Assembly: GCF_000020385.1 (NCBI RefSeq) | Contig: NC_010814.1 | Location: forward strand, 1,170,001-1,202,000 | DNA length: 32,000 nucleotides | Direction: 5' to 3' | Source: Trichlorobacter lovleyi SZ | Lineage (GTDB): Bacteria > Desulfobacterota > Desulfuromonadia > Geobacterales > Pseudopelobacteraceae | Shown: positions 338 to 19,506 of the stretch, one piece after another | How the letters are laid out: the number at the start of each line of letters is the position of its first letter | How positions within the stretch are numbered: the stretch's first letter is position 1 | The notes under the pieces: generated by a model | What the model saw: the letters and a program-made list of their open reading frames with translations, nothing else | Told to the model about the DNA's origin: nothing | Databases searched by the model: none | Program-made: the position numbers and the translations under genes

Positions 338-2650
338 ATGAAAAATACTGATATGCATAGCAACCAGTTGGTGCCGGAGGAACAGCAGCAAGGATTGTCC
401 GGACGATTGGCGGCGTTGGTACCCCTGACCTTCAGGGGGCGTGCGATGCTGTTTCTGTTCCCAATGATTGTTATTATTTCAATGGTTTATACCTTTGAGT
501 CGATTTCAACCGAGAGGAAGATTCTCAAGAGCGAAATCATCAAAAAAGGGGAGACCATTGCTGCAATTGCTGCACGGAATGCCGAGCTGTCGTTGCTCTC
601 TGAAAATTTTGAACAGCTGAAAATTTCTGCCCAGCCGTTGATGGAGATCAAGGATGTTGCCTTTGTTTCATTCCTCAACAAGCGTTCTGAGATCCTGCTT
701 CATGAAGGGAAGCAGTACCCGTTGACGTCACCCCTGACACTGGGAAGTGACCGCTTGATCAGCTTTTCCGAACATGATGACGTCTTTGAATTTATTGTGC
801 CGGTGATAACGATTAAGGCTGCAGAGGGATTCTTCCTGTTGGAAGGGAATGGTGCTGATGCAACGGTCAGGGAACAGATCGGCTGGGTCAGGATCGGCCT
901 TTCCAAGGAGGTTATGAGCCGCTCCGAGCATCGTATTATCATTCGGGGCAGTATGCTGGCAGTCGCTTTTTCTATTGTTGGCGCCCTGTTGCTGTACCTG
1001 TTTGTCTCCCTGGCAACCAGACCGCTGTATGCGCTCATCGATGCGGTCAAAGAGGTCCGGGAGGGTGAGCACCCGGAGGTTCCCGTTTTGTCGCCCAAGA
1101 GCGAAATAGGCCGCCTTACCGCAGAATTCAACCGGATGAGCCGTGCCATAAAGGAGCGGGAAGATGAGCTGAAGCGGCATCGCGATCATCTTGAAGAGCT
1201 GGTTGCTGAACGCACAGCTGAGTTGACCATTGCAAAGGAACAGGCCGAGTCAGCCAATCGGGCTAAAAGTGATTTTCTCTCAAGTATGAGTCATGAACTG
1301 CGCACACCGCTGAATGCCATCCTGGGCTATGCCCAGATACTCCGGCTGCATAACAATCTGTCGGATATACAGCGGCAACAGCTGGATATTATGCGGAACA
1401 GTGGTGAACATCTGCTGACATTGATCAATGATATCCTTGATGTGGGCAAAATTGAAGCCAACAAGATGGATGTTGAAGATGCCGTGTTCGATCTGCCGGC
1501 CCTGATTGCCCAGGTCTTTAATCTTACCAAACTGCAGGCGGAAGAGAAGGAGCTGCAGTTTCACTACGAACCGGAAACCCCGTTACCGGCGTATGTGCAC
1601 GGGGATGAGCGCAAGTTGCGCCAGATTTTACTGAACCTGCTTTCAAATGCGGTTAAATATACCCGCCGGGGCAGTGTTACCATGCGGGTGAGCTATGGCC
1701 GTGCCGGAGACGGCCTGTTTCGCTGTGAGGTGGCGGATACCGGCATTGGTATTCCTGCTGATAAACTGGGTGTCATCTTTGAACCGTTTACCCAGCTCAC
1801 CAATGACCGGCAGGGCCGCGAAGGGACCGGACTCGGGCTTAATATCACAAAGCGCCTGCTGACACTCATACAGGGTACCATGGGGGTGGAGAGCATACCC
1901 GGTAAAGGCAGCACATTCTGGTTGGAGGTGCCACTGGCGTCATTGCTGGACGACGAAATTTCCCAGGAAATGAATGAATGCCATATTGTCGGTTACCGGG
2001 GACCACGTAAAAGAATTCTGGTTGTTGATGACACGGTTGGGAATACTGCCCTGCTGGTTTCGTTACTGGAGCCTTTGGGATTTGATCTTGATACGGCCCA
2101 GAACGGTCAGGAAGCCCTGTTGCAGGCGTCGGAGCAACGGCCTGATCTGGTCCTGCTTGATCTGGTGATGCCTGAAGTGGACGGATTGGAGGCGGCCAGG
2201 CTTTTACGACAGGATACCGCGTTGGCCTCCACAAAAATTATTGGTGCCTCGGCCACGGTGACGGATAGTAATCATAAGGAGGCGTTTGTTAACGCTTGTG
2301 ATGATTTTGTGACCAAGCCGATCCGTATTGACCTCCTGCTTGAAAAAATATCCGGACTGCTGGGGATTGAGTGGGAAACGGCGGTGGTTACAACCGCACG
2401 AGATGACCGTGAGCCCAAATCATGGAAAGACGATGAGCCGTTTGTGGTTCCTCCATCAGCAGAGTTGGAGGTGTTGCATGAATTAGCCATGATGGGCGAT
2501 ATGTTGGAGATTGAAGCGTGGGCAACGGCGCTGGAGGCACAGGACACTACCTACCGGTGCTTTGCCGAAAGATTGCGTGAACTGGCAAAGGCCTTTAAGG
2601 CAAAAGCAATTCTGGCGCTGGTAGAACAATGCCGAGGAGCAGCTACATGA
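338..2650 (+). CDS. Hybrid sensor histidine kinase/response regulator (2 TM, HAMP, HisKA, HATPase_c, REC, and a C-terminal extension of about 90 aa)
   Basis: The 770-aa ORF has an H-box SHELRTPLNAILGYAQIL and a G-box GTGLGLNITKRLL. The receiver has RILVVDDTVGN...DLVLLDLVMPEVDG...TKP. TM segments flank a region of about 150 aa, followed by a HAMP-like linker. Confidence 0.9.
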   Translation: MKNTDMHSNQLVPEEQQQGLSGRLAALVPLTFRGRAMLFLFPMIVIISMVYTFESISTERKILKSEIIKKGETIAAIAARNAELSLLSENFEQLKISAQPLMEIKDVAFVSFLNKRSEILLHEGKQYPLTSPLTLGSDRLISFSEHDDVFEFIVPVITIKAAEGFFLLEGNGADATVREQIGWVRIGLSKEVMSRSEHRIIIRGSMLAVAFSIVGALLLYLFVSLATRPLYALIDAVKEVREGEHPEVPVLSPKSEIGRLTAEFNRMSRAIKEREDELKRHRDHLEELVAERTAELTIAKEQAESANRAKSDFLSSMSHELRTPLNAILGYAQILRLHNNLSDIQRQQLDIMRNSGEHLLTLINDILDVGKIEANKMDVEDAVFDLPALIAQVFNLTKLQAEEKELQFHYEPETPLPAYVHGDERKLRQILLNLLSNAVKYTRRGSVTMRVSYGRAGDGLFRCEVADTGIGIPADKLGVIFEPFTQLTNDRQGREGTGLGLNITKRLLTLIQGTMGVESIPGKGSTFWLEVPLASLLDDEISQEMNECHIVGYRGPRKRILVVDDTVGNTALLVSLLEPLGFDLDTAQNGQEALLQASEQRPDLVLLDLVMPEVDGLEAARLLRQDTALASTKIIGASATVTDSNHKEAFVNACDDFVTKPIRIDLLLEKISGLLGIEWETAVVTTARDDREPKSWKDDEPFVVPPSAELEVLHELAMMGDMLEIEAWATALEAQDTTYRCFAERLRELAKAFKAKAILALVEQCRGAAT

Positions 2651-4005
2651 TTTCTGAGGGGCAGCAGGTGACTTCATCCGGTGAACGGCGGCCGGTCATT
2701 CTTGTCGTTGATGACGATGCCAATAATCTCGCTGTGGTGCGTGATTGTCTTGTGGCTTTTAACTATACCATTCTGGTTGCGGAAGATGGTGAAAGCGCTG
2801 TCAAACGCGCTGACTATGCCCGGCCGGATCTGATTCTGCTTGATGTCATGATGCCGGGGATTGATGGCTACGAAACCTGCCGCAGGTTGAAGGCCTTAAA
2901 GAGTACCCATGCTATTCCTGTTCTGTTCATGACAGCCCTGGCGGAAACAGGAAACAAGGTAAAAGGACTTGAGGCCGGGGCTGTTGATTATATTACCAAA
3001 CCTTTTCAGCGGGAGGAGCTGCTGGCCCGCATTGCTGTCCATCTGCACAACCGGGAGCTTACGAAAAGGCTTCAGGAAGCAAAGGAACTGCTGGAATCCA
3101 GAGTGGAAGAGCGGACCGCTGAATTGGCCCGGGCAAACAATGAGCTGCATGAAAAGGCGCTGCTGCTTGAAGCGGAGATCGCTGACCGCGTGCTGGCAGA
3201 ACAGGAGCTGCATGTCAAACAGACCCAGCTTGAGGCCCTGAACCGGACCCTTGAGACACGGGTGCAGGACGAGGTGCAGAGAAACCGCGAAAAGGATGCC
3301 ATGATGATCCAGCAGGGGCGTCTGGCGGCTATGGGTGAGATGATTTCCAATATTTCCCACCAATGGCGCCAGCCCCTGAATGAGCTGGGTATCATGATTC
3401 AAATGCTGCGGGTTGATTATGATGAGTCGTTGCTGGATGATACAAGGATTGATGAGTTTTCAAGAGGCTGCATGGAGATTATTCAGCATATGTCTCAGAC
3501 CATCAATACCTTCCGTAATTTTTTCCAGAAGGGGCAGTCTTCCGATCGCTTCGAGGTTGCAGCTGCCATTACGAAAACCGTAGAGCTGGTGCAGGCCTCG
3601 TTTCAAACTGCCGGAATTGCCTTAAACCTGAAGCTGGAGCCCGGCGGTCTGATCCAGGGCAGTGCCAATGAATTTTCCCAGGTCATACTCAATCTCTTTA
3701 ACAATGCCCGTGACGTTTTGGTGGAACGCGACATTACCGCCCCGGAAATATCGGTGGCCATGCAGTTGGGAGACGGGCAGATCATGGTGACTATGGAGGA
3801 TAATGCCGGCGGCATTTCAGAAGAGATCAGCGGAAAGATATTTGACCCCTACTTTACGACCAAACATAAGTCTCAGGGGGTTGGTCTGGGGCTGTATATG
3901 TCAAAAATGATCATTGAAGGTAAAATGGGGGGGAGTATTGAGGTCGGCAACACCTCTGGCGGGGCCTGTTTCCATCTTACGCTGCCTGCTGCAGCTACTA
4001 TCTGA
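2629..4005 (+). CDS. Response-regulator receiver fused to a histidine kinase (REC, coiled coil, HisKA-like, HATPase_c)
   Basis: The 458-aa ORF has a receiver (VILVVDDDANN...DLILLDVMMPGIDGYE...ITKP), an H-box ISHQWRQPLNELG, an N-box LNLFNNARDV and G-boxes DNAGGI and GVGLGLYMSK. An alternative ATG at 2647 gives an ATGA overlap with the upstream stop codon. Confidence 0.85.
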   Translation: MPRSSYMISEGQQVTSSGERRPVILVVDDDANNLAVVRDCLVAFNYTILVAEDGESAVKRADYARPDLILLDVMMPGIDGYETCRRLKALKSTHAIPVLFMTALAETGNKVKGLEAGAVDYITKPFQREELLARIAVHLHNRELTKRLQEAKELLESRVEERTAELARANNELHEKALLLEAEIADRVLAEQELHVKQTQLEALNRTLETRVQDEVQRNREKDAMMIQQGRLAAMGEMISNISHQWRQPLNELGIMIQMLRVDYDESLLDDTRIDEFSRGCMEIIQHMSQTINTFRNFFQKGQSSDRFEVAAAITKTVELVQASFQTAGIALNLKLEPGGLIQGSANEFSQVILNLFNNARDVLVERDITAPEISVAMQLGDGQIMVTMEDNAGGISEEISGKIFDPYFTTKHKSQGVGLGLYMSKMIIEGKMGGSIEVGNTSGGACFHLTLPAAATI

Positions 4006-4037
4006 AACTCACCGTTATCCGGCCATAATGGCTAAAA

Positions 4038-4076
4038 AGCCCACATCATGGCTTCGGGGAGGGCATGATGTGGGCT
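4038..4076. terminator. Bidirectional rho-independent terminator between convergent genes
   Basis: Perfect 13-bp stem AGCCCACATCATG / CATGATGTGGGCT, with an A-tract upstream and T-rich sequence downstream. It lies between the kinase stop (4005) and the hisG stop (4095). Confidence 0.6.
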
Positions 4077-4094
4077 TGATTGTTTCACAGGGTA

Positions 4095-4970
4095 TCAGAT
4101 GATCTTGCTCAACGGGTATTCAATGATCCCCTCGGCCCCCAGGCGCAGCAGTTCCGGTACGATCCGGCGCACCTCTTTTTCAGGCAGGATGCTCTCAATC
4201 GAAACCCAGTCTGATTTGTAGAGGTGGGCAACGGTGGGCGCCTTCTGGCTAGGCAGGATGCCGGTGATCGCTTCAACCTTTTCAGCCGGGGCATTCAGTT
4301 TCAGGCCGACCATCCCCTCGGCCCGCAGGGCGGAATTGAGCAGGGTTGCAATCTGCTCAATCTTGGCCCGTTTCCAGGGGTCTTCCCAGGCGGCCTTGTT
4401 GGCCACCATGACCGGCACCGATTCCATCAGGTCACAGACGATCCGCAGGTTATTGGCCCGGATTGTGGAGCCGGTCTCGGTGACCTCAACAATGGCATCA
4501 CAGAGGCCGTCAACCACTTTGGCTTCGGTGGCGCCCCAGGAAAATTCGACATTGACCTGGATGTTGCGCTCCTTGAAGTAGCGCTTGGTAAACTCCACCA
4601 GCTCAGTGGAGATGGTGGCACCCTGCAGGTCTTCCGGTCCCTGAACCGGTGAGTCCTGAGCCACCACCAGCACCCAGCGCACCGGGCGGCGGGAGACTTT
4701 TGAGTAGACCATCTCGCAGACTTCCACCACATCGGAGTCGTTTTCACGAATCCAGTCACGGCCTGCAATTCCTACATCAATGGTGCCGCGCTCCACATAT
4801 TTGCCCATCTCCTGCGGCCGGATCAGGTGGCATTTCATCTCGCCGTCATCAACGGTGGGGAAGTAGCTGCGGGAAGAGATGCCGATCTGCCAGCCGGCCT
4901 GTTTGAACAGATCGACCGTGGCCTCTTCCAGACTTCCTTTAGGGATACCGAAACGTAGTACGGTGCTCAT
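4095..4970 (-). CDS. hisG: ATP phosphoribosyltransferase (long form)
   Basis: [27 protein letters not shown]...[12 protein letters not shown]... is typical HisG. I place the start at the ATG at 4970, which forms an ATGA overlap with the hisI stop, rather than at the ORF-track start 5036. Confidence 0.9.
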
Positions 4971-7179: not shown

Positions 7180-7473
7180 CAACGGGTTGCAACTGAAGAG
7201 AAGAAGGCTAAAGTCTCTGCCCCGGATGCACGAAAAGATAAGTAACAGGGTATTTCGATAATGTTTGTGCAGCGAGAGTGGTCTTGAAAGAAGGTGAGCC
7301 GGATGGCATTCGGTACAGTCGTTACACTGTTCACATCAGGGAGGGTCTCCCTTGAAGCGGCTGTTGACATGCTGGTACATACTCTTGGTTACCGTGACCG
7401 TGCCATGGCCTATGCCCTTCTTAATGCGGCCCGGAGTTCTTGCTAGAAACGTTCTGTTGGCGATATGAATGAC

Positions 7474-7510
7474 AAAAAGCCCTGCACCATAACTGGTTGC
7501 AGGGCTTTTT
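7474..7510. terminator. Rho-independent terminator hairpin, usable on both strands
   Basis: AAAAAGCCCTGCA-loop-TGCAGGGCTTTTT: an 8-bp GC-rich stem with extra inner pairs, an A-tract 5' and a T-tract 3'. On the minus strand it directly follows the tRNA 3'-end remnant at 7518-7542. Confidence 0.7.
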
Positions 7511-7517
7511 GTTGTTT

Positions 7518-7542
7518 GGTGGTGCTCAGTCTCTTGAACTGA
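7518..7542 (-). repeat. Decayed copy of the tRNA-Met 3' end (distal att site / displaced tRNA end)
   Basis: The minus strand reads CAGTTCAAGAGACTGAGCA-CCACCA; the tRNA 3' end at 16810-16834 reads GGTTCGAGTCCCTGAGCAGCCACCA. Hand alignment gives about 19/25 identical with a 1-nt gap. The T-loop GTTCxA, CTGAGCA and CCACCA are retained. Confidence 0.5.
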
Positions 7543-7595
7543 TTGTGTAATATGCTGTTTTCTTTTGCAGTAAATTTGTTTTTAAGATTATATGT

Positions 7596-7617
7596 ATCCC
7601 CAAAAACATCCCCAAAA
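7596..7617 (+). repeat. Two direct copies of ATCCCCAAAA, 12 bp apart (candidate integrase arm-type sites)
   Basis: Exact decamers lie at 7596-7605 and 7608-7617. The same decamer recurs in both orientations next to the integrase gene at 16645-16700. Confidence 0.4.
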
Positions 7618-7667
7618 CTGTTGTTGCTTATCCGTTTTTAGATCAGACAGGCGGCTCTGTTGTAGGG

Positions 7668-7880
7668 CTATTCTGCTGCTCCGCTATCCTTTTGACAACA
7701 GCCTGCCTCTTCGTCGGATATCTGCTTGATGGTTAGCGTCAATACTCGCAGGTCGCTGATTCGGTCAAGCTGTTCATCCCGTGGCAGATCAATAAACTCT
7801 ACGGCAAAGTCGTAGGTCTCGCGTTCCAGTATGTTGATCAGGGAGCGAAGTTCTACTTCGGGGCTATTTGGGTAGATCAT
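7668..7880 (-). CDS. Hypothetical small acidic protein (70 aa)
   Basis: The ATG at 7880 overlaps the upstream gene's TGA (ATGA). A strong SD (AAGGTGGTG) sits 5-11 nt upstream. I recognise no family. Confidence 0.55.
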   Translation of the reverse strand: MIYPNSPEVELRSLINILERETYDFAVEFIDLPRDEQLDRISDLRVLTLTIKQISDEEAGCCQKDSGAAE

Positions 7881-8242
7881 TGTTCACCACCTTTTCTAAG
7901 ATTGCTTATTTGTCCAATATAGAGCTTTTCCCATTTTTCTGATGGTCTCAATGCATGGGGCGCACAATGTCGTACAGGTGTTAAGTCGTTAAGGTGACGA
8001 TGAATGTCATCGGTAATAGAAACCAAGTCATTAATAATAAGTTTAAATATTTGATTGGCAGAATCTTCTGAATAAGTCCTTAACTCATCTAAAGCATAAT
8101 AATACGCACCAAGAGCCCCTGTTGTTTCTTCAAGTTCATAATGAAGCTCTTGCAGTTTACTGTAATGGTGGTCTGCTACTGAATTGTCTTCGCTGGCAGG
8201 TAATGGAGAAGCCTGTTGTGGTTTGGTTGCTTTTTGTGCCAT
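7877..8242 (-). CDS. Hypothetical protein (121 aa)
   Basis: The ATG at 8242 has AAAGGA 9 nt upstream. The gene is AT-rich, helical-looking and translationally coupled to the 70-aa ORF. I recognise no family. Confidence 0.6.
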   Translation of the reverse strand: MAQKATKPQQASPLPASEDNSVADHHYSKLQELHYELEETTGALGAYYYALDELRTYSEDSANQIFKLIINDLVSITDDIHRHLNDLTPVRHCAPHALRPSEKWEKLYIGQISNLRKGGEQ

Positions 8243-8445
8243 GGCGTTTGTCCTTTCAAATGTATGATAACTATACCTTCATGCTACCCACAAAAATTGC
8301 ATTGTATAAGCTGTTTTCTTTTGATAGGCTATGTATAACATTTTGATGTTATTGTATTTTATCCGCATTAATTGCGGACAAAATGTTTGATTGTTGCGTG
8401 TATATTTGCTTGAATCTGTCTGAAAAATGCACGCATTACCAATGG

Positions 8446-8481
8446 CAAGAGCCGCCCAGGGGATCCCCGGAGCGGCTCTTG
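8446..8481 (-). terminator. Long GC-rich hairpin 30 nt downstream of the 749-aa gene (possible terminator, but no clear U-tract)
   Basis: CAAGAGCCGC...GCGGCTCTTG forms a 10-bp perfect outer stem enclosing the palindrome GGGGATCCCC. Confidence 0.4.
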
Positions 8482-8510
8482 TGTTTCAACGTGCTGAAAA
8501 TTAAGCCGGT

Positions 8511-10760
8511 CTACCTGTACGCCTGTTTGTACCAATCAACCGCAAGCTTGATGTTGTCCAGGTCTTGCGCTGAAAGGCTGGTAAGAAACTGCTGCCGCAT
8601 GTGCAGGGGCATACCTGCCAGCGGGTGCTGACGCTTGATGCTCTGGTACAGGTTTTCCGGCTTGCCGCCTGCCTTCAGATATTCTGCCTTGTACTTGTCC
8701 ACCGCTTCTCTGTCACGGTACTTCATGGCCTGCCGGAAGTAGTACAGGGCCTTGCTCCGTTCGGTGGGCTCTGCTGTGGTCTGTTCTCTGCCGTGCTTCT
8801 CAAGGAAGCGACCAACCTGTTGCTTGATGTCGTGATAGGCGTTCTCGCCGGGGTCTGACTCGTACACCACCATATTCTTCAGGCTGTTCAGGTAGCCTTT
8901 ACCCGGCTTGTCTGCCAGTGCCTTGTACTCTTCATCCAGCGCAAAGAAGCGGGCTACATGCTCGGTTCTGTCCCTGATCGGCATAGGCTTGGTCATATCA
9001 GGGTAAATGCTTTTACCGGTCATCAGTTCACCGGCCAGTTTGGTAAAGGGGCTGGCGGCGTTCACTAGCTTGTTTGGGGTTGCCAGTGCCATCTTCTTCA
9101 GCATTTCCTTGGCATCCATCCGGCCTGTTTCCAGCTTTTTGAAGCTTTCTGGGTAATCTTCCAGCCCTGCCCATGCAAGCACGTCTGAGAAGGCACCAGA
9201 GAAACGCAGGGTTAACGTCTTTCCGTCGCTAGTGGTGCCAAGGATCAGGTGCAGCTGTCCCCGTACCTGTGCGCTTAACTTTTCTTCCTCTTCCGGGTGA
9301 AGCAGATGATTGAAGGCTGATACCGCTGCAAACAGCAGGTGGGTCAACAGTACCTTTTCACCAATGCCCAGGGCTGCCCCTGCTGCCTTGCGAGTGCCTA
9401 CCCCTGCCATGCGTGCCGCTGTGCTGCCTGCTTCCCCTTGGGTGGCGGCATTCTTGAACAGGCGGTAATAGCGTGGGGCGTTAATCTCCATCCAGCTCCA
9501 GAACGGAATCAGGCTGGTTCTGATCTTCTCCCCATGTGCAGACAGGTTGCCGTAATCCCCCAGCAGTTCCCGGCTAAGTTTGGCGGCCTTGTCCCTGGTG
9601 TTGGTCAGGCTGTTAATCTCTGCAGGTGTTGAGGCCCAATAGACCGGCTTGCCTTGGTCAAGCAGTTCCTTGGCTCGCAGATAGGCGGCTTCCCTTAACA
9701 GCCCTTCCCGTAACTGGGTCAGGCTGGAAACCTTATCAAAGTATTTGGCAATCAGGTTTGCCGGAGCCAGCTTGGTAAGATCCCCGGTTTTCAGGGCCTC
9801 CAGCAGTTTGACGTCGCGGGTGCCTTCCTTCAGGTGCTGGAATCCGGGTAGTTTGGAGATGTCGGGGATTTCATTGATGCTGATACCGGCATCAATGACG
9901 CCACGGTCAAGCATGGCCAGCTCTTCAAAGGTCATCGGCTGGCCTGCCTTGCGGTTTAGGGCATTCTTCCAAGCAGTGCTGAAGTGCTTCATAATGCCGG
10001 GATCAGCAGCAAGAACGATATCAAGGTCACCTGACATATTGTTCAGGTTGTACTTCAGTGCCCGACGTGGAGAGAGCAGCGTCCAGACCTTCCAGCCACC
10101 AATCAGCTTTTTATTGATGGTGTCCAGGGTGGCATCTTCCCGGTTGGTTCTCAGGTTATCAAGGGTCTTTGCCAGCCCTGCAGGAATAACCACCTCTTCT
10201 TTTCTGCCGCCAAGGATCAGCACTTCTTTAAACTTCTGCGCCACTTCAGCAAAGGCCGGGTTCTGCTCTACAAAGCGGGTAATGATACTTTCCGGCATGG
10301 TCTGACCTTTGTAGAAGACGCTGCCCTTTTCCGGCTGCCATGTGGTGTAGCCTTCGGGGATCAGGGATTTCCAGTCAGCAGCCCCTTCCTGTTTGGCCTG
10401 TTCCCGCAATGCCGGGGCAAGGTCATTAATGCTCAGTACCTCGTCCAATGCCTTCTTGGTTGCCAACTCTTTCATGGCCTGGCTGTAGTATTCAAACTCT
10501 GCTTCAAGGAAGTTGGTATTAATGTCCAGTTCTGAACCTTCCCGGCCTTTCTGCCAGCCCCGCTGCTTGTTGCGTACCTCTCCGGCTGTACTGATTCCAG
10601 CCCACTTGCGGGCGTTGGCATGTTCAAGTACCTGGTGCCTGAAATAGCCGGTGTTAATGTCATCTGCAGTGTATTTGCCGGTCTGTTTGTAGTTCTCCAG
10701 CCCTTCAGGGGTCAGCACTGATTCAACCGGCAGCAGGTTGTTATCTACCAGTTCAAGCAC
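8511..10760 (-). CDS. Large hypothetical protein (749 aa), no recognisable domain
   Basis: A long uninterrupted ORF with a GTG start, 29 nt downstream of the Rep-like gene on the same strand. By eye there is no Walker A motif and no obvious nuclease or primase motif. One Gly/Ala-rich plus hydrophobic segment (AARMAGVGTRKAAGAALGIGEKVLLTHLLFAAVSAFNHLL) is present. Confidence 0.85.
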   Translation of the reverse strand: MLELVDNNLLPVESVLTPEGLENYKQTGKYTADDINTGYFRHQVLEHANARKWAGISTAGEVRNKQRGWQKGREGSELDINTNFLEAEFEYYSQAMKELATKKALDEVLSINDLAPALREQAKQEGAADWKSLIPEGYTTWQPEKGSVFYKGQTMPESIITRFVEQNPAFAEVAQKFKEVLILGGRKEEVVIPAGLAKTLDNLRTNREDATLDTINKKLIGGWKVWTLLSPRRALKYNLNNMSGDLDIVLAADPGIMKHFSTAWKNALNRKAGQPMTFEELAMLDRGVIDAGISINEIPDISKLPGFQHLKEGTRDVKLLEALKTGDLTKLAPANLIAKYFDKVSSLTQLREGLLREAAYLRAKELLDQGKPVYWASTPAEINSLTNTRDKAAKLSRELLGDYGNLSAHGEKIRTSLIPFWSWMEINAPRYYRLFKNAATQGEAGSTAARMAGVGTRKAAGAALGIGEKVLLTHLLFAAVSAFNHLLHPEEEEKLSAQVRGQLHLILGTTSDGKTLTLRFSGAFSDVLAWAGLEDYPESFKKLETGRMDAKEMLKKMALATPNKLVNAASPFTKLAGELMTGKSIYPDMTKPMPIRDRTEHVARFFALDEEYKALADKPGKGYLNSLKNMVVYESDPGENAYHDIKQQVGRFLEKHGREQTTAEPTERSKALYYFRQAMKYRDREAVDKYKAEYLKAGGKPENLYQSIKRQHPLAGMPLHMRQQFLTSLSAQDLDNIKLAVDWYKQAYR

Positions 10761-10789
10761 CAGATGCTTGCTGACTTCTGCTCGGTGTT

Positions 10790-11383
10790 CTACTGCTGCC
10801 TTAATGTCCGGGTTTTTGAAGCGACAAGAGATTCTTTTTTTCCTTCTTTTAAATGGTGTGGGGTCCGGGCGGGTTCCGGGGTGGTGTCCGGCGTGGGGTC
10901 CGGTGTAGACATTTGTTGACTTTCCCTAACAATCCCTAACATTTCTGGCCGTTCTTTGGTGGGTTCCGGGGTGGTGTCCGGGATGGTGTCCCGTGTGGGG
11001 TCCGGGTTTTGGTGGGGTCCGCAACTGTCGGAAGCTTGATAAGTGTCATATTTGATTATTGAAATCAGCAATCCTCTGGTGGTGTCCGCCACTTTTATAG
11101 CCCCTGTCTGTCTCATCCAGCCGTATGCTGCCCGTACCTGATCAACTGATAATTTGCCGGTCAGTCGATTACCTGATTTGTATGCCCCTACCTCTTGCAT
11201 TTCCTTGATGCTGGTCAGCAGTTGCCCACGTTTAAGCCCCTGCCCATCCTGCCAGCGGGCTTTTAATAACATCCAGATCCACAACTTCAGGTAGTGGGGC
11301 GGTTTGCTGAATAGGTCAGAGTCCAGCAGCTGGCGGAATAGTCTGATGTACCCGCCTGATATGTGTGTGTCTGGTAGTTGCAT
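10790..11383 (-). CDS. Putative winged-helix DNA-binding / replication-initiator-like protein with a Pro/Thr/Asp-rich repeat tail
   Basis: The ATG at 11383 has an AGGGG SD. The N-terminus GYIRLFRQLLDSDLFSKPPHYLKLWIWMLLKARWQDG resembles N-termini of phage/plasmid replisome-organiser-type HTH proteins (from memory). The C-terminus carries PDPTRDTIPDTTPEP and PDPTPDTTPEP repeats. The coding call is firm; the function is tentative. Confidence 0.65.
   Translation of the reverse strand: MQLPDTHISGGYIRLFRQLLDSDLFSKPPHYLKLWIWMLLKARWQDGQGLKRGQLLTSIKEMQEVGAYKSGNRLTGKLSVDQVRAAYGWMRQTGAIKVADTTRGLLISIIKYDTYQASDSCGPHQNPDPTRDTIPDTTPEPTKERPEMLGIVRESQQMSTPDPTPDTTPEPARTPHHLKEGKKESLVASKTRTLRQQ
10858..11022. 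repeat. Iteron-like repeat cluster inside the Rep-like gene
   Basis: The exact 21-mer GGGTTCCGGGGTGGTGTCCGG occurs at 10871-10891 and 10961-10981, 90 bp apart. GTGGGGTCCG(G/C) occurs at 10858, 10893, 10995 and 11012. Tandem TCCCTAAC lies at 10923 and 10933. An AT-rich tract follows at about 11033-11075. Confidence 0.45.
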
Positions 11384-11502: not shown

Positions 11503-11898
11503 TTAGGGTGCTTGCTCGTCTGCGGTCTCGGGATTATCCTCTGCGTCCATGCGCCAGACGGCATCCCAGCCATACGCCTCAATCGCCAGCTCCATCAGGT
11601 CAGAGCCACGCCATAACCAGACTTCGCCATGCCGGATAAGATCGGGACGCTGTAGTTTGCGCCCGGTCCTCTGGAAAATTTCAGCTTTAGTAAATGCCGT
11701 GGAGATCGCGTTGCGGACACTTTGCGGAACATTGCCGCCAATTGTAGGCCGGTGGTTAGGATCAGCGGCAGCGTCACGCCAGCCAAAATTCTCGAAGTCT
11801 GGCAGCGGTGGCCCATCATCACCGCGTGGGCCGGGTGGTTCTTGGGCCTGCAGCTCTTGAATCTGCCTGATCAACTCGTCTATGCGCGCGCGACTCAT
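11503..11898 (-). CDS. Hypothetical protein (131 aa)
   Basis: The ATG at 11898 overlaps the TGA of the AlpA-like gene (ATGA). I recognise no family. Confidence 0.65.
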   Translation of the reverse strand: MSRARIDELIRQIQELQAQEPPGPRGDDGPPLPDFENFGWRDAAADPNHRPTIGGNVPQSVRNAISTAFTKAEIFQRTGRKLQRPDLIRHGEVWLWRGSDLMELAIEAYGWDAVWRMDAEDNPETADEQAP

Positions 11899-12092
11899 TG
11901 GGTGATGCCTCTCTCGATCAGGTTGATGATCTCGTCAGTGCGGAAGCGGGTGGTCTTCCCGGTCAGCTTCACCGGGTTGAGGTGTCCAGCCTTCGCAAGG
12001 TTCCAGACCGATGTCCGGCATATGCCCAGGGCTGCGGCTGCGTTTTTGTCGGTGGTCAGTGTGCCGGGGGTTAAGTGTTGGCGGGTGTCCAT
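11895..12092 (-). CDS. AlpA/excisionase-family helix-turn-helix protein
   Basis: The 65-aa ORF has an AAGGAGG SD 9 nt upstream. LTTDKNAAAALGICRTSVWNLAKAGHLNPVKLTGKTTRFRTDEIINLI matches the AlpA/MerR-type HTH_17 pattern typical of P4-like islands. Confidence 0.8.
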   Translation of the reverse strand: MDTRQHLTPGTLTTDKNAAAALGICRTSVWNLAKAGHLNPVKLTGKTTRFRTDEIINLIERGITQ

Positions 12093-12187: not shown

Positions 12188-12958
12188 TTGGGGGGTATTG
12201 TGGCTAAGGGACGTGGTGGCGGAAACACTCCGAAACTTGTTACATATTTGCTGAAAGATGCTGTTGAAAAAAGCAGCATACGTGCGGTCGCAAGAGAAAG
12301 CGGCTTAACACAATCAGCTGTTTATAGATATCTGCAAGGTATTGGCGAGCCATCGCTTAGCACGCTAGAAAGGTTAGCAACTTATTTTCAGGTAAGTGTT
12401 GCGTATTTAAGGGGGGATGTTGACAGCACTGAAAATAAGCTAAAGCAGTTTATCAAAAATCACACTTCTGAAATTAGGTCTCGGTCAGATGATGCTGAGC
12501 TGATGCAGCTTTTTGAAAACTTCATCAAAAACAATCCTGATGCAGGGTTTGCAGTAGCAGATGTATTTAATACAAAAAAAATGGAATCAATTGTTTTTGC
12601 CTTAAATATAAATCAGGAACGTCTTCAGGCTGAAATAGAACGTCTTCAGGCTGAACGTGATGCTCTTATTAATTCTGAAAAGCGTCAGGGTCTTGACGAT
12701 GAAGCCGATGTTTTTATAGAAATTTTGAGTTGCTTGTTGGAAATCTACGAAATAGTCCCCGAACGATTAAAAGATACTTTTAAGATCGTTATTGAAGGAT
12801 ATCGTGATGATGCTTCCAATATTGATTTTACAAAAATTCCGTGTGAAAAATATAAGCAGTTAGATGCGCTGACTTCAAAGGCTTGGGATATTTTCTATGG
12901 TGATGCTGAATTTGATACAGATGGAGTTTTATTAGGGAGAAATAAGGAGAAGGAATAG
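12188..12958 (+). CDS. XRE-type HTH protein with an uncharacterised C-terminal domain of about 170 aa
   Basis: The HTH is IRAVARESGLTQSAVYRYLQGIGEPSLSTLERLATYFQVSVAYLRG. The track start is a TTG at 12188; the in-frame GTG at 12200, preceded by GGGGG, is the more likely start. The gene is markedly AT-rich. Confidence 0.75.
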   Translation: MGGIVAKGRGGGNTPKLVTYLLKDAVEKSSIRAVARESGLTQSAVYRYLQGIGEPSLSTLERLATYFQVSVAYLRGDVDSTENKLKQFIKNHTSEIRSRSDDAELMQLFENFIKNNPDAGFAVADVFNTKKMESIVFALNINQERLQAEIERLQAERDALINSEKRQGLDDEADVFIEILSCLLEIYEIVPERLKDTFKIVIEGYRDDASNIDFTKIPCEKYKQLDALTSKAWDIFYGDAEFDTDGVLLGRNKEKE

Positions 12959-13156: not shown

Positions 13157-13486
13157 TCAGGCTGCTGCGACTCTCAAGCTGCCCAGTTGCCGTGAACGTG
13201 CCTTGGGCTTGATAACGATCTGGACATCCCGGCCCAGCAGGTTCAGGAAGTGAAACAGGCGTTCCATGGAAAAGCCTTTCAGGCGTCCACGAATTAAGGC
13301 TGATACCTTGGGCTGATCTATTCCCAGCAATTCTGCTGCCTGTGCCTGGGTCAGGTGCCGCCTTTTGATGATATCATGTATCTGGATAGAGAGCAGGGCC
13401 TTTGCCTGCATTTCTTCGGCATCAGGTAGTTCAAGGTCTGCAAACACGTTACCGCTGCTGTGGTATAATTCAATCTCTTCTTTCAT
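13157..13486 (-). CDS. XRE-family HTH antitoxin (HigA-like)
   Basis: NVFADLELPDAEEMQAKALLSIQIHDIIKRRHLTQAQAAELLGIDQPKVSALIRGRLKGFSMERLFHFLNLLGRDVQIVIKP is the usual partner of Gp49-type toxins. It starts 7 nt after the toxin stop. Confidence 0.85.
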   Translation of the reverse strand: MKEEIELYHSSGNVFADLELPDAEEMQAKALLSIQIHDIIKRRHLTQAQAAELLGIDQPKVSALIRGRLKGFSMERLFHFLNLLGRDVQIVIKPKARSRQLGSLRVAAA

Positions 13487-13492
13487 ATCTTG

Positions 13493-13858
13493 TTACCTCC
13501 CTTTGCCCCGGTGCAACTCTTCAGCCATCTTCAACCGCGTCTTGATCTTCTCTATTTCTGCTTGAGGCGTGGCAATCCCTGTTTTTGATTTCTTCTGAAA
13601 TACATGCAACACATAGACTACATCCGCAAAGCGTACCGTATAGACAGCCCGGTATGTATCGCCGTCATGATCTTCAACAATCTCTAGTACACCAGCACCT
13701 GAAAAGCCTTTCAGCGGCTTGGCGTCGGGATGCTTACCGCCTGCCTGGGCCATGAAGAGAGCAACACCAAAGAAACGCCTGACGTCTTCCGGCATTTCTT
13801 TTAGGTCTTTCAGGCTGCTGGCAATCCACTCAAGAGGTTTTGTAGGCTTGTTATTCAT
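13493..13858 (-). CDS. Type II toxin, phage Gp49-like/HigB-like (RelE/ParE superfamily)
   Basis: KPLEWIASSLKDLKEMPEDVRRFFGVAL...YRAVYTVRFADVVYVLHVFQKKSKTGIATPQAEIEKIKTRL is the Gp49/DUF891 pattern. I use the ATG at 13858 rather than the track start at 13909. Confidence 0.85.
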   Translation of the reverse strand: MNNKPTKPLEWIASSLKDLKEMPEDVRRFFGVALFMAQAGGKHPDAKPLKGFSGAGVLEIVEDHDGDTYRAVYTVRFADVVYVLHVFQKKSKTGIATPQAEIEKIKTRLKMAEELHRGKGR

Positions 13859-13909
13859 TGCGTCCCCATTATGCCATAATTGGCATAAATATAAACAACA
13901 AAAATTCAA

Positions 13910-14464
13910 TCAGGCTTTTGCTGCCTTGGCTATCCGGTACACGCTGGCAATACCTATTTCCAGTTCATCAGCTACCGCCTGCTTTGTCTTGCCCTGGGCC
14001 AGCAGTTCAAGTGCCTTGTCAGACAGTGCCCGTGCTGTTGCCTTGCGGCCTTGGTAGCGCCCTGCATCTTTGGCCAGCCTGATCCCTTCCCGCTGCCGCT
14101 CCAGCATCATTTCCCTTTCAAACTGTGCGATTGATGCCAGCATGGAAAGCATCAGCTTGCCGGTGGGGGTGGAGGTGTCCAGGTTGATGTTCAAGACCTT
14201 GAAGGAAACCTTTCTGGCTTCAAGTGACTCTACGATCTCTAACAGGTGTTTGGTGCTGCGGGCTATCCGGTCCAGCTTGCAGACTATTACCGTGTCACCT
14301 TCCCGGAGGTGGTCAAGCATTGCCGCCAGCTGTGGGCGGTCTTGCTTCACGCCTGATGCTTTTTCTTTGAAGATCTTATCAACACCAGCACCGTTTAGTT
14401 GCTCAAGCTGTGCGGTCAGTTCCTGGCCTTCTGTGCTTACCCGTGCATATCCGATGATTGCCAT
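13910..14464 (-). CDS. Serine recombinase (resolvase/invertase family)
   Basis: MAIIGYARVSTEGQ...DTVIVCKLDRIARSTKHL...LASIAQFEREMMLERQREG, with a C-terminal HTH (KTKQAVADELEIGIASVYRI). I use the ATG at 14464. Confidence 0.9.
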   Translation of the reverse strand: MAIIGYARVSTEGQELTAQLEQLNGAGVDKIFKEKASGVKQDRPQLAAMLDHLREGDTVIVCKLDRIARSTKHLLEIVESLEARKVSFKVLNINLDTSTPTGKLMLSMLASIAQFEREMMLERQREGIRLAKDAGRYQGRKATARALSDKALELLAQGKTKQAVADELEIGIASVYRIAKAAKA

Positions 14465-14518
14465 GATAGTTCCTCTCTGTGCGGTTGCTATCAACAAGTT
14501 AAATACTATGTGATAAAC

Positions 14519-16644: not shown

Positions 16645-16700
16645 TTTTGGGGATACCCAAAATGCTATGGGGATATTTTGCTGAAAATATATCCCCAAAA
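16645..16700. repeat. Cluster of ATCCCCAAAA-type sites in both orientations upstream of int
   Basis: TTTTGGGGAT lies at 16645-16654 (inverted), ATACCCAAAA at 16653-16662 (1 mismatch) and ATCCCCAAAA at 16691-16700 (exact). There is also the palindrome-like GGGGATATTTTGCTGAAAATATATCCCC. Confidence 0.4.
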
Positions 16701-16809: not shown

Positions 16810-16886
16810 TGGTGGCTGCTCAGGGACTCGAACCCCGGACCTCACACGTATGAAGCGTATGCTCTAGCCAGCTGAGCTAAGCAGCC
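16810..16886 (-). tRNA. tRNA with anticodon CAT (elongator Met, or Ile2 if lysidine-modified)
   Basis: The reverse complement folds by hand as a 77-nt cloverleaf. The 7-bp acceptor is GGCTGCT/AGCAGCC and the D-arm is GCTC...GAGC. The anticodon stem is TACGC/GTGTG with loop TTCATAC. The T-arm is CGGGG-TTCGAGT-CCCTG, with discriminator A and an encoded CCA. Confidence 0.9.
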
Positions 16887-16931
16887 ATTTGAAAACGCCC
16901 CTTCGGTAGACCAAAGAGGCGGTTGGTGATT

Positions 16932-17008
<77 letters not shown>

Positions 17009-17811: not shown

Positions 17812-19506
17812 CTACATCTTTTCCGGGGCTGATACGCCCAGCAGGGTGAGGGCGTTTTGTATAACCTGCCTGGTGCGGGCCAACAGGTAGAGTCGTGCGA
17901 TACTCAGTGAGGTGTCTTCCGTCACTACCTTGGACTTGTTGTAATAGCTGTGGAACTGGCCTGCCAGTTCGGTCAGGTAATAGACGATCTTGTGCGGTTC
18001 AAACTCCTGTGCCGCGTCATCAACGGTTTCCGGCAGGCTTTCAAGCCACTTGATCAGACGCAGTTCTTCAGGGGTCTCAAGTTGAGCGAGAACAGCTGCG
18101 TCTGGCGTCTGATCAGGCAGGTGGATGCCTTTGTCTGCCGCATTCTCAAAGATGCTGCAGATACGGGCATGGGCATACTGGATATAGTAGACCGGGTTGT
18201 CCAGTGATTGCTGTTTGGCAAGGTCTATGTCAAAGACCAGTTGCGAGTCGGGCTTACGCATTACAAAGAAGAAGCGGGTGGCGTCACGACCGACCTCGTC
18301 GATCAGATCCCGCAGGGTGACATAGCTGCCGGCCCGCTTGGAGATCTTGACCTCTTCGCCACCCCGCATGACGGTGACCATCTGATGCAGGACGTATTCC
18401 GGCCAGCCCTTGGGAATACCGGCGTTCAGGGCCTGCAGGCCGGCCCGCACCCGGGTGATGGTACTGTGGTGGTCGGCTCCCTGCTCATTGACGACCCGCA
18501 GGAAGCCGCGCTGCCATTTGTCCAGATGGTAGGCCACATCCGGTACGAAATAGGTGTAGCCGCCGTCGGTCTTGCGCATGACCCGGTCCTTGTCATCACC
18601 AAAATCGGTGGTGCGCAGCCAGAGTGCTCCCTCCTGCTCATAGGTGTGACCATTGGCAATCATCTGCTGCACTGCTGCCTCCACCTTGCCGTCAGAGTAG
18701 AGGCTTGATTCGAGGAAGTAGTGGTCAAAGCGGACATCAAAGGCCTGCAGATCCTGATCCTGTTCCCTGCGCAGGGCTGCAACGGCAAAACGCCGGATGG
18801 CATCCAGATCGTCCGGGTCGCCGCTGGCAGTGACCTGCTGGTCTCCGGCAACAACGGTCTCCCCGGCAAGGTAGGCCGTTGCCACCTCTTTGATGTACTC
18901 TCCCTGGTAGCCATCTGCAGGCCAGCGCGGGTCGTCGGTTTCAATCCCGAGGCAGCGGGCCTGGACCGACAGGGCCAGGTTGCTGATCTGGGCACCGGCG
19001 TCGTTGTAATAAAATTCACGGGTGACCTGCCAGCCGGTTGCAGCCAGCAGGCGGCAGAGCACATCACCGATGGCAGCACCCCGACCATGGCCGATATGGA
19101 GTGGCCCGGTGGGGTTGGCACTGACAAACTCAACCTGCGCCTTGCGACCGGCGCCGCTGTCCGTGGTGCCGTAGGCCGGGCCGGCCTGTTCAATCAGTGG
19201 CAGGCACTGTTGCCAGGCAGACGGAGCAATAAAAAAGTTGATGAAGCCCGGACCGGCTATTTCAGCCCGGCGAATCAGTCCGTCAGTGTCCTGGAGGTGC
19301 AGCAGTACACTTTCAGCCACCTGGCGGGGGGACTTGCGTTCCGGTTTTGCCAGTTGCAGGGCGATGTTGCAGGCAAAATCACCGTGGGCTTCCTGGGCAG
19401 GGGTGCCGATAACGACATCAGGGAACAGTTCTGAACAAAGGACGCCTGCATTGCGGGCAGAGGCAAGGGCTTGGGTTACCAGTACAGCAAGTTTCTGACG
19501 GATCAT
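17812..19506 (-). CDS. argS: Arginine--tRNA ligase
   Basis: The 564-aa ORF has the class I HIGH motif ([14 protein letters not shown]) and typical ArgS N- and C-terminal domains. Confidence 0.95.

Follow-up and report, generated by a model that had tools for sequence, protein, structure and literature searches.

A putative reduced accessory operon for two small helical proteins at the edge of a decayed integrative element in Trichlorobacter lovleyi SZ

Two small overlapping genes lie on the minus strand of a 32,000-nucleotide (nt) stretch of Trichlorobacter lovleyi SZ (NC_010814.1, positions 1,170,001 to 1,202,000; the whole stretch is called the window below), at the distal tip of a genomic island. 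We refer to them as B (121 amino acids, aa) and D (70 aa). An earlier note on this DNA had suggested a toxin-antitoxin (TA) or effector-immunity pair. We propose, with a probability of about 45%, that the pair represents a pared-down version of an accessory operon that is moron-like, modular and lineage-restricted, and that the encoded proteins work by binding. The operon is real, rare and modular: an insulating terminator is followed by a leader with two palindromes, by one to three variable genes for small helical proteins and, in last place, by D. Its carriers are phage- or satellite-like integrative elements of Trichlorobacter/Geobacter-type hosts, with the operon at the element edge, and the window holds a reduced copy in a decayed element.

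B and D overlap by four nucleotides at 7877-7880, where TCAT on the plus strand reads ATGA on the minus strand. Each start codon is preceded by a Shine-Dalgarno (SD)-like sequence (AAAGGA, ending 8 nt before the ATG of B, and AAGGTGGTG, ending 4 nt before that of D). The earlier note had placed the two open reading frames (ORFs) and their overlap exactly, had credited each with an SD, and had correctly given the C-terminal peptide of D, DEEAGCCQKDSGAAE, and the counts of 19 G+C in the 60 nt 8281-8340 and 44 in the 60 nt 18421-18480. Its placement of the pair in the most AT-rich part of the window did not hold: in 300-nt windows the locus has 37% G+C, compared with 34-36% at 12,350-12,950 in the cI-like repressor gene. 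The two genes differ markedly in composition, with 39% G+C and 25% G+C at third codon positions in B, and 50% and 54%, respectively, in D. As in morons, the leader (40% G+C) and B are atypical with respect to the neighboring ORFs (∼52-56%). D is very acidic, as the note had stated (isoelectric point 4.25, net charge -9.5), whereas B, which it had taken to be basic, has an isoelectric point of 5.6 and a net charge of about -6, its basic residues being confined to the first ∼10 positions. The grand average of hydropathy of the two proteins is -0.34 and -0.71.

Both B and D are genuine genes rather than chance ORFs. A word-indexed search with B returned a single relative of 74% identity, and an exhaustive phmmer search of 1.84 billion cluster representative proteins (E < 1e-3) extended the family to seven clusters, six of them at 34-48% identity besides the 74% relative. 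Homologues down to 34-48% identity keep the motif ILKLIxxDxxSIxDDIxRHLEGxxPxRxxAPxALRPPExWE, which argues that B is a real gene. The D family comprises 13 clusters (57-99% identity) with the conserved core ELRxLINILERETYDFAEEFIDLPxxEQLDRISDLRVLxxTIKQ and the invariant positions ...N.L.R.T...A.....L....QLDRI.DLR.L...IK...D. The ratio of nonsynonymous to synonymous substitution rates (dN/dS) for D is 0.24-0.46 in six of seven comparisons; the seventh gives 1.1 and rests on only four synonymous changes. D is thus under purifying selection, and the 13 homologous clusters together with these mostly low ratios argue that it, too, is a real gene. B evolves fast, with a dN/dS of 0.76 against its closest relative. 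The conservation in relatives that the earlier note had presupposed is therefore present for both ORFs.

Comparison of related loci revealed a fixed last gene and changing partners (Table 1). In all D-bearing loci D closes the series of small genes, and it is either translationally coupled to the gene before it or fused with it. The D start codon overlaps or directly adjoins the stop codon of that gene in the window, L001, L011, L014 and L017, and two lineages have D fused with the gene upstream (C.D in L037 and C'.D in L034). Besides B, D has five unrelated upstream partners, and once it stands by itself, straight after the giant polyvalent-protein gene of L011. The upstream partners B, C/C', X, Y, W and Z show no mutual relation by BLAST, jackhmmer or hhalign, with the exception of the 108-aa protein of L011, which is weakly B-like and was confirmed as a B member by profile search. 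B, C and X have a similar basic, Gln/Pro-rich N-terminal tail (K..KPQQ..P). The earlier note had called for a test of co-occurrence, and the outcome is uneven: B is accompanied by D in six of eight distinct contexts, but D is accompanied by B in only about half of its own, and is found elsewhere with X, Y, W, Z or C, or alone.

Table 1. Gene order of the operon in the window and in related loci (numbers in brackets are protein lengths in aa; giant, polyvalent-protein gene)
Locus	Gene order
Window	giant fragment / leader / B-D
L001	giant / leader / A(114)-B(116)-D(66)
L011	giant - D(70, 22-nt gap) / leader / B(108)-C(87)-D(58)
L037	giant / leader / A(113)-B(110)-[C.D fused, 136 aa] / integrase
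L034	integrase / leader / B(138)-[C'.D fused, 153 aa] / resolvase
L045	integrase / B(97)-C'(83)-D(60) / resolvase
L017, L018, L039	giant / leader / X(63)-D(64)
L014-16, L041, L043	Y(73-78)-D(58-72); Y begins 3 nt past the giant gene in L016 and L043
L040	giant / leader / W(151)-D(60)
L042 (Ga0302238_1010502, 2153-3861)	xis-146-118-Z-D; giant gene absent
L033, L046	DnaB ... B(101)-255/259-aa protein, without D

The copy in the window lacks A and C of the fuller versions. The B-D form without C is found in the window and in L001, and C is present in four fuller B-containing operons. We had considered a clean deletion of A relative to L001 and have revised this: leader and first codons are 86% identical to the L011 type, and the segment from codon ∼18 of B through D is 90% identical to L001. 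Since the leader and 5'-untranslated region resemble the 'leader to B' type of L011, the window copy is a mosaic and not necessarily the product of a deletion. Gene content past the giant gene differs among L001, L011, L014, L017, L037 and L040, a presence/absence pattern of the kind known for morons. The D operon is retained in two independently degraded elements, the island in the window and L042. The latter is a second independent deletion derivative, with an xis-like gene, a 146-aa homologue of the 131-aa ORF in the window, a 118-aa ORF and Z-D. In L033 (10001-11070) a B-family gene lies directly downstream of a DnaB(-like) helicase gene, and in L046 (2742-3823) it follows such a gene after two small genes; in both loci B overlaps a gene for a 255/259-aa protein (54% identical between the two) in place of D, an alternative partner.

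The intergenic region between the 749-aa ORF and B contains, in the direction of transcription, a GC-rich hairpin, a second palindrome and a conserved core (Table 2). The GC-rich hairpin is kept in six of six aligned relatives, is followed by a T-run in several of them and probably insulates the B-D cassette as a terminator. The stem of the second palindrome has one position with compensatory changes across relatives (CG in three, AU in two, UA in one) and may be either a second terminator or an operator. The core holds a perfect palindrome, TAACAT-N4-ATGTTA (8336-8351), and the strongly conserved block AAAACAGCTTAYGCAATG. An nhmmer search with the core found one copy each in 21 of the loci compared, in addition to the window, representing at least seven distinct element types, and the copies sit just upstream of operons starting with A, B, X or W. 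Because a terminator hairpin follows the 749-aa ORF and the leader is conserved upstream of related operons, the operon very probably has its own transcription signals. This supports the independent transcription from 8243-8510 that the earlier note had suggested. The window contains no further copies of the two leader palindromes, which could have linked them to a regulator of the island. A perfect hairpin in the adjoining host DNA is a candidate bidirectional terminator that would also end the B-D transcript; Rfam models run on 7200-8800 gave only sub-threshold matches, on this host terminator. An 18-nt piece of the leader (CAAAAGAAAACAGC[T/A]TAT, minus strand; 8306-8323) is repeated beside the attachment-site (att) remnant at 7550-7567; a protein may bind at both places, or the repeat may record how cassettes were shuffled.

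Table 2. Features of the B-D locus and of the surrounding island
Feature	Coordinates	Strand	Remarks
Gene D, 70 aa	7668..7880	minus	ORF list; family homology
Gene B, 121 aa	7877..8242	minus	ORF list; family homology
AT-rich intergenic leader, 268 nt	8243..8510	minus	upstream-ORF terminator plus conserved regulatory leader
Conserved leader core, 68 nt	8286..8353	minus	nhmmer profile, alignment
Hairpin/palindrome	8356..8384	minus	ATTTTGTCCGCA-N5-TGCGGATAAAAT, core TCCGCA-N5-TGCGGA
GC-rich hairpin, 18-nt arms	8446..8481	minus	directly 3' of 749-aa ORF stop; probable terminator
3' fragment of giant polyvalent-protein gene	8511..10862	minus	called ORF 749 aa, homology 784 aa
Element terminal arm plus degenerate attR	7516..7667	minus	
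Perfect hairpin, 15-nt arms	7472..7512		host DNA between MCP gene and element end; bidirectional terminator candidate
Gp49 (HigB-like, PF05973) plus HTH_37 (HigA-like, PF13744)	13160-13909	minus	canonical TA pair
Serine resolvase/invertase	13913-14497		adjoins Gp49/HTH_37 pair
tRNA-Met at island start	16810-16886		island abuts its 3' end

Structure predictions point to simple folds. The AlphaFold2 model of D is a two-helix hairpin (helices 7-31 and 34-66; predicted local distance difference test (pLDDT) score 84). For B, the model (pLDDT 72, built from a two-sequence alignment) shows a disordered N-terminal tail, a long α-hairpin (helices 19-57 and 59-87) and a C-terminal helix of lower confidence; past the hairpin, B carries the conserved C-terminal motif ...DDIxRHLxGxxPxRxxAPxALRPPExWE. 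According to these models, both proteins would be soluble acidic α-hairpins; neither has transmembrane segments, signal peptides or catalytic motifs. Foldseek searches with both models against the PDB, and with D against BFVD, returned only generic helical hairpins (E > 0.3) and no toxin-like fold. The second-ranked match of B is Rip1 of prophage HK446, likewise a small helical prophage-encoded protein, but this match is non-significant (E 0.77, r.m.s.d. 12.6 Å), comes without sequence similarity and can serve as a lead only. Rip1, which is described as a single protein, acts in prophage defence by binding a phage protein, the small terminase, whose ring it caps (PMC12908700, PDB 9oox). We rejected the Rip1 and small-terminase matches as non-significant, a HEPN assignment of B for want of an Rx4-6H motif on inspection, and Doc- and Rop-like assignments, which lack motifs or matches. 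A WXG100/ESAT-6-like pair was discarded as well, as there is no WXG in the turns (...TYSEDS... in B and ...DLPRDE... in D) and no Pfam WXG100 match; no type VII secretion component was found among the window ORFs submitted to Pfam.

B and D seem to define two new, very rare protein families. One D homologue carries the NCBI annotation Trichlorobacter lovleyi, the proteins of the window are also present in the metagenome of the KB-1 dechlorinating culture, and only six loci with these families were found in JGI metagenomes. Searches of B, D, A, C, X, Y, W, Z and neighboring proteins against Pfam, PHROGs, NCBIfam and PADLOC gave nothing above noise except for phrog_30050, a phage profile of 86 positions without an assigned function. 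Ten of 14 D members match it weakly (best E 5.8e-4, sub-threshold), always over the latter part (second half) of helix 1 and helix 2 of D. PDB profile searches yielded chance matches only, and hhalign finds B and D to be unrelated to each other. No match was found by tblastn in INPHARED cultured phages (B, D and the 749-aa fragment) or in PLSDB plasmids (D and the 749-aa fragment). A scan with the D profile gave one spurious match among GTDB species representatives and nothing in IMG/VR. Literature searches found no relevant description of a G. lovleyi prophage or of a satellite with a polyvalent protein.

The boundaries of the element place the operon at its extreme distal end, as the earlier note had proposed. 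L011 is a full-length element in the same host site (MCP/HisI/HisG flank, 98.6% identical), and its identity to the window is ∼100% from ∼7525 outward, which sets the element/host boundary at ∼7525; complete elements of the L011 type are represented by the 43-kb contig SRR28117424_3414. The stop codon of D thus lies ∼140 nt inside the element; in L001, which is integrated elsewhere, homology ends ∼25 nt past the D stop. The att remnant reported at this end is real but degenerate, with GTTCAAGAGACTGAG-CACCACCA at ∼7516-7540 resembling the 3' end of tRNA-Met.

The island itself is the remnant of an internal deletion. The 749-aa ORF corresponds to the C-terminal third of a polyvalent protein of 1765-2081 aa: its region shares 94% identity with residues 1298-2081 of the giant protein of L001 (2081 aa), and it also matches the C terminus of the 1765-aa protein of L011. 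Homology to the giant protein passes the called start up to 10862 and into the 3' end of the 197-aa ORF. In this ORF, similarity to a 307-aa DnaD-like protein is confined to the first ∼115 residues. Since the giant homology runs into an ORF that is itself only partly DnaD-like, we place a deletion junction between the giant fragment and the truncated DnaD-like gene at ∼10,814-10,862. About 10 kb has been lost, comprising DnaB, ∼5 genes and ∼4 kb of the giant gene.

How might such an operon work? Given the coupling of D to its upstream neighbor and the two independent C-D fusions, we suggest that D physically partners this neighbor, probably in a helical bundle. The variable, fast-evolving nature of the partners in turn suggests that they are specificity subunits in a binding-type conflict function. 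B and D would be made in near-equimolar amounts from a regulated promoter of their own within the leader, and would assemble as a helical-bundle hetero-complex. D could be the common adaptor or stabilizing subunit, with target specificity provided by the variable partner, here B. Rather than acting as an enzyme toxin, the complex would bind a host or phage protein stoichiometrically in phage-host or phage-phage conflict (exclusion, defence or counter-defence). Morons, which are autonomous extra transcription units in lambdoid and HK97-type prophages, offer a close parallel: they share with B-D the position after the last conserved gene at the element edge, the patchy presence, flanking terminator-like hairpins, an upstream region of their own and, in the case of the first gene, B, an atypical AT-rich composition. 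B and D, however, belong to no described moron family, and theirs is a modular operon of several genes, headed by a conserved leader and closed by an invariant gene, instead of one inserted gene; its promoter is putative.

Several observations weigh against this proposal. Formation of the complex is deduced from coupling and the C.D fusions only. All fold matches of B and D are generic hairpins and give no functional anchor by homology. A sigma-70 consensus scan of 8243-8510 found no convincing promoter. The window/L001 form lacks C, and the dN/dS of B could equally reflect relaxed constraint in a decaying module. Finally, the gaps of 3-22 nt between the giant gene and D or Y-D in two lineages fit a role tied to the giant protein and not an autonomous moron. 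A bolder form of the argument, in which B-(C)-D and its leader are an undescribed modular conflict system, with D as invariant hairpin adaptor for interchangeable B, C, X, Y and W, that blocks phages (by exclusion or abortive infection, possibly TA-like) or neutralizes host defences, seems to us rather unlikely.

The original idea of a TA or abortive-infection module, in which one protein inhibits growth and the other neutralizes it by binding, so that the island is stabilized or phage infection aborted, we consider unlikely. In the most TA-like variant D would be a conserved toxin with swapped antitoxins B, C, X, Y and W; alternatively, D would be a shared acidic antitoxin. As in type II systems, including tripartite and fused ones, two small co-directional, overlapping genes lie on a mobile element, one partner is strongly acidic, and the leader palindromes are of the autoregulation kind. 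The module is intact in both of the independently degraded elements. Mix-and-match and fused TA designs exist, for example CapRel-type fused systems. Partner shuffling and the C.D fusions resemble such designs, and the fused forms and the acidic small partner are compatible with an unusual one. The earlier note had recognized no TA family in either protein, and indeed searches of Pfam, NCBIfam, PADLOC and the PDB placed B and D in no family of toxins or antitoxins. Their models are plain hairpins without a known toxin fold, a catalytic motif or a DNA-binding antitoxin domain (ribbon-helix-helix, helix-turn-helix (HTH), AbrB or Phd), and neither a secretion signal nor a secretion system was found for them. 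L011 has a lone D directly behind its giant gene, and L033 and L046 have B but no D. Cognate specificity is also difficult to square with a single acidic hairpin of 58-70 aa that neutralizes, or is neutralized by, five partners unrelated to one another. The lone D, B without D, the promiscuous partners and the lack of toxin or DNA-binding folds together weaken the TA reading and, with it, that of an exclusive effector-immunity pair. The island, moreover, already has a canonical TA pair in Gp49/HTH_37. A polymorphic toxin-immunity pair formed with the giant protein was rejected, as its C-terminal 749 aa are conserved (31-41% identity) in distant phages that have neither D nor B homologues, and in the window the giant fragment and the pair are separated by a terminator and a leader.

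D and its partners could instead be accessory or chaperone subunits that bind the DarB-like giant protein or help to load it, or small cargo proteins, into particles, in the manner of the P1 Dar system or of small acidic hairpin chaperones; we regard this as decidedly unlikely. The operon is directly 3' of the giant gene in every locus that covers the upstream region (window, L001, L011, L014-L017, L037, L040) except L042, and the gap shrinks to 22 nt before the lone D of L011 and to 3 nt before Y-D in L016 and L043, so that co-transcription with the giant gene is to be expected in these two lineages. The giant N terminus matches PHROGs with profiles of 2900-4647 positions, including 'DarB-like antirestriction', and the tail common to B, C and X could be a targeting signal. 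P1 Dar is a multi-component anti-restriction system, and T4 internal proteins are a further parallel; there, too, small accessory proteins are found near a giant DarB-like protein, and common N-terminal tails may act as targeting signals. We detected no homology to these systems, however, and in the window and most other loci the conserved terminator and a separate leader set the operon apart from the giant gene. The short contigs recovered for L034 and L045 have the operon between integrase and resolvase genes and carry no giant gene, and L042 retains Z-D without one. A 4039-aa polyvalent protein encoded on an IMG/VR phage contig (L020) ends in a homologue of the giant C-terminal domain. No B or D homologues were found in the distant IMG/VR phages that carry this domain, and the giant gene of L020, the one phage inspected, is directly followed by an integrase gene and not by a small gene. 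The common tails may also merely reflect recombination at operon 5' ends.

An anti-CRISPR (Acr) and Acr-associated (Aca)-like arrangement, in which B and the other variable genes inhibit host immunity and D regulates the operon through the leader palindromes, is improbable. The architecture would fit, with inverted repeats in the promoter-proximal region, variable small genes, among them the fast-evolving B, and a conserved 3' gene usable as an anchor. The proteins are small and acidic, like DNA mimics, and the operon adjoins a giant gene of the DarB-like anti-restriction type. Aca proteins, however, are HTH repressors, whereas D is an acidic two-helix hairpin of 58-70 aa without an HTH, and DNA binding by such a hairpin with a net charge of -9.5 is implausible. 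Neither B nor D matches a known Acr, Aca or anti-defence family, no link of the operon to CRISPR or another defence system was found, and counter-defence genes in a dead remnant give the host no gain, although the deletion may be recent.

That B-D is a decaying leftover without present function, drifting in a dead prophage, is the least probable of these readings and in our view quite improbable. The island has lost ∼10 kb, the dN/dS of B against its closest relative is 0.76, and the window form lacks the C gene of the four fuller B-containing operons. Yet both ORFs are intact with their SD sequences and the coupled ATGA, D is under purifying selection and the leader is conserved. The B-D form is also found in the apparently full-length L001, which has DnaB and the 2081-aa giant gene.

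In practical terms, B-D should not be annotated as a TA pair and should be read within a truncated, decayed element. For now it counts as prophage cargo with a narrow distribution: an accessory operon at a prophage edge is a familiar kind of thing, while its proteins are new. If functional, it would add two small-protein families and a 'conserved leader - variable genes - conserved last gene' architecture on mobile elements of organohalide-respiring Trichlorobacter/Geobacter. In anti-CRISPR discovery, aca genes served as genomic anchors; D and the 68-nt leader could, if the operon is functional, likewise anchor a harvest of further accessory genes, and D, if the modular conflict system is real, the discovery of new small effectors.

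The island derives from a family of elements of ∼18-19 kb (L011, L017 and L033; also L001 and L039), integrated at tRNA-Met or beside SmpB (ssrA). Their genes run from an integrase through an HTH repressor, an xis-like gene, a small terminase (Terminase_2) and a DnaD-like gene to DnaB, followed by ∼5 coiled-coil or Gly-rich proteins, the giant gene for 1765-2081 aa and the small D operon. Pfam and PHROGs recognize no capsid, portal or large-terminase gene in them, and the parent element looks satellite-like. Read on the minus strand from tRNA-Met, the island in the window encodes a P4-type integrase, an HTH protein, the resolvase, the Gp49/HTH_37 pair, a divergent cI-like repressor, an excisionase-like protein of the HTH_17 type (11898-12092), the 131-aa ORF, the DnaD-like 197-aa ORF, the 749-aa ORF, B and D.

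Further observations concern the remaining DNA of the island. The motif AAAAACATCCCCAAAA occurs in two tandem copies at 7590-7617 and a third time at 16685-16700, between the integrase start and the tRNA; these copies are candidate arm-type integrase binding sites marking both island ends. Two tandem tRNA-Met (CAT) genes with differing sequences occupy 16810-17008, and it is the downstream one that the island abuts. With 34-36% G+C, the cI-like HTH_3 repressor gene (12188-12958) is richer in AT than any other part of the window, and it contains an exact 18-nt direct repeat (12617-12634 and 12638-12655). The 197-aa ORF holds seven overlapping copies of a repeat with a 12-nt period (GGTGTCCGGGGT-like) at 10856-11020, which encodes a Pro/Thr/Asp/Glu-rich stretch (PDTTPEPT...). 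In another sample (L008) this gene is annotated with 160 aa, so that repeat copy number or start site may vary.

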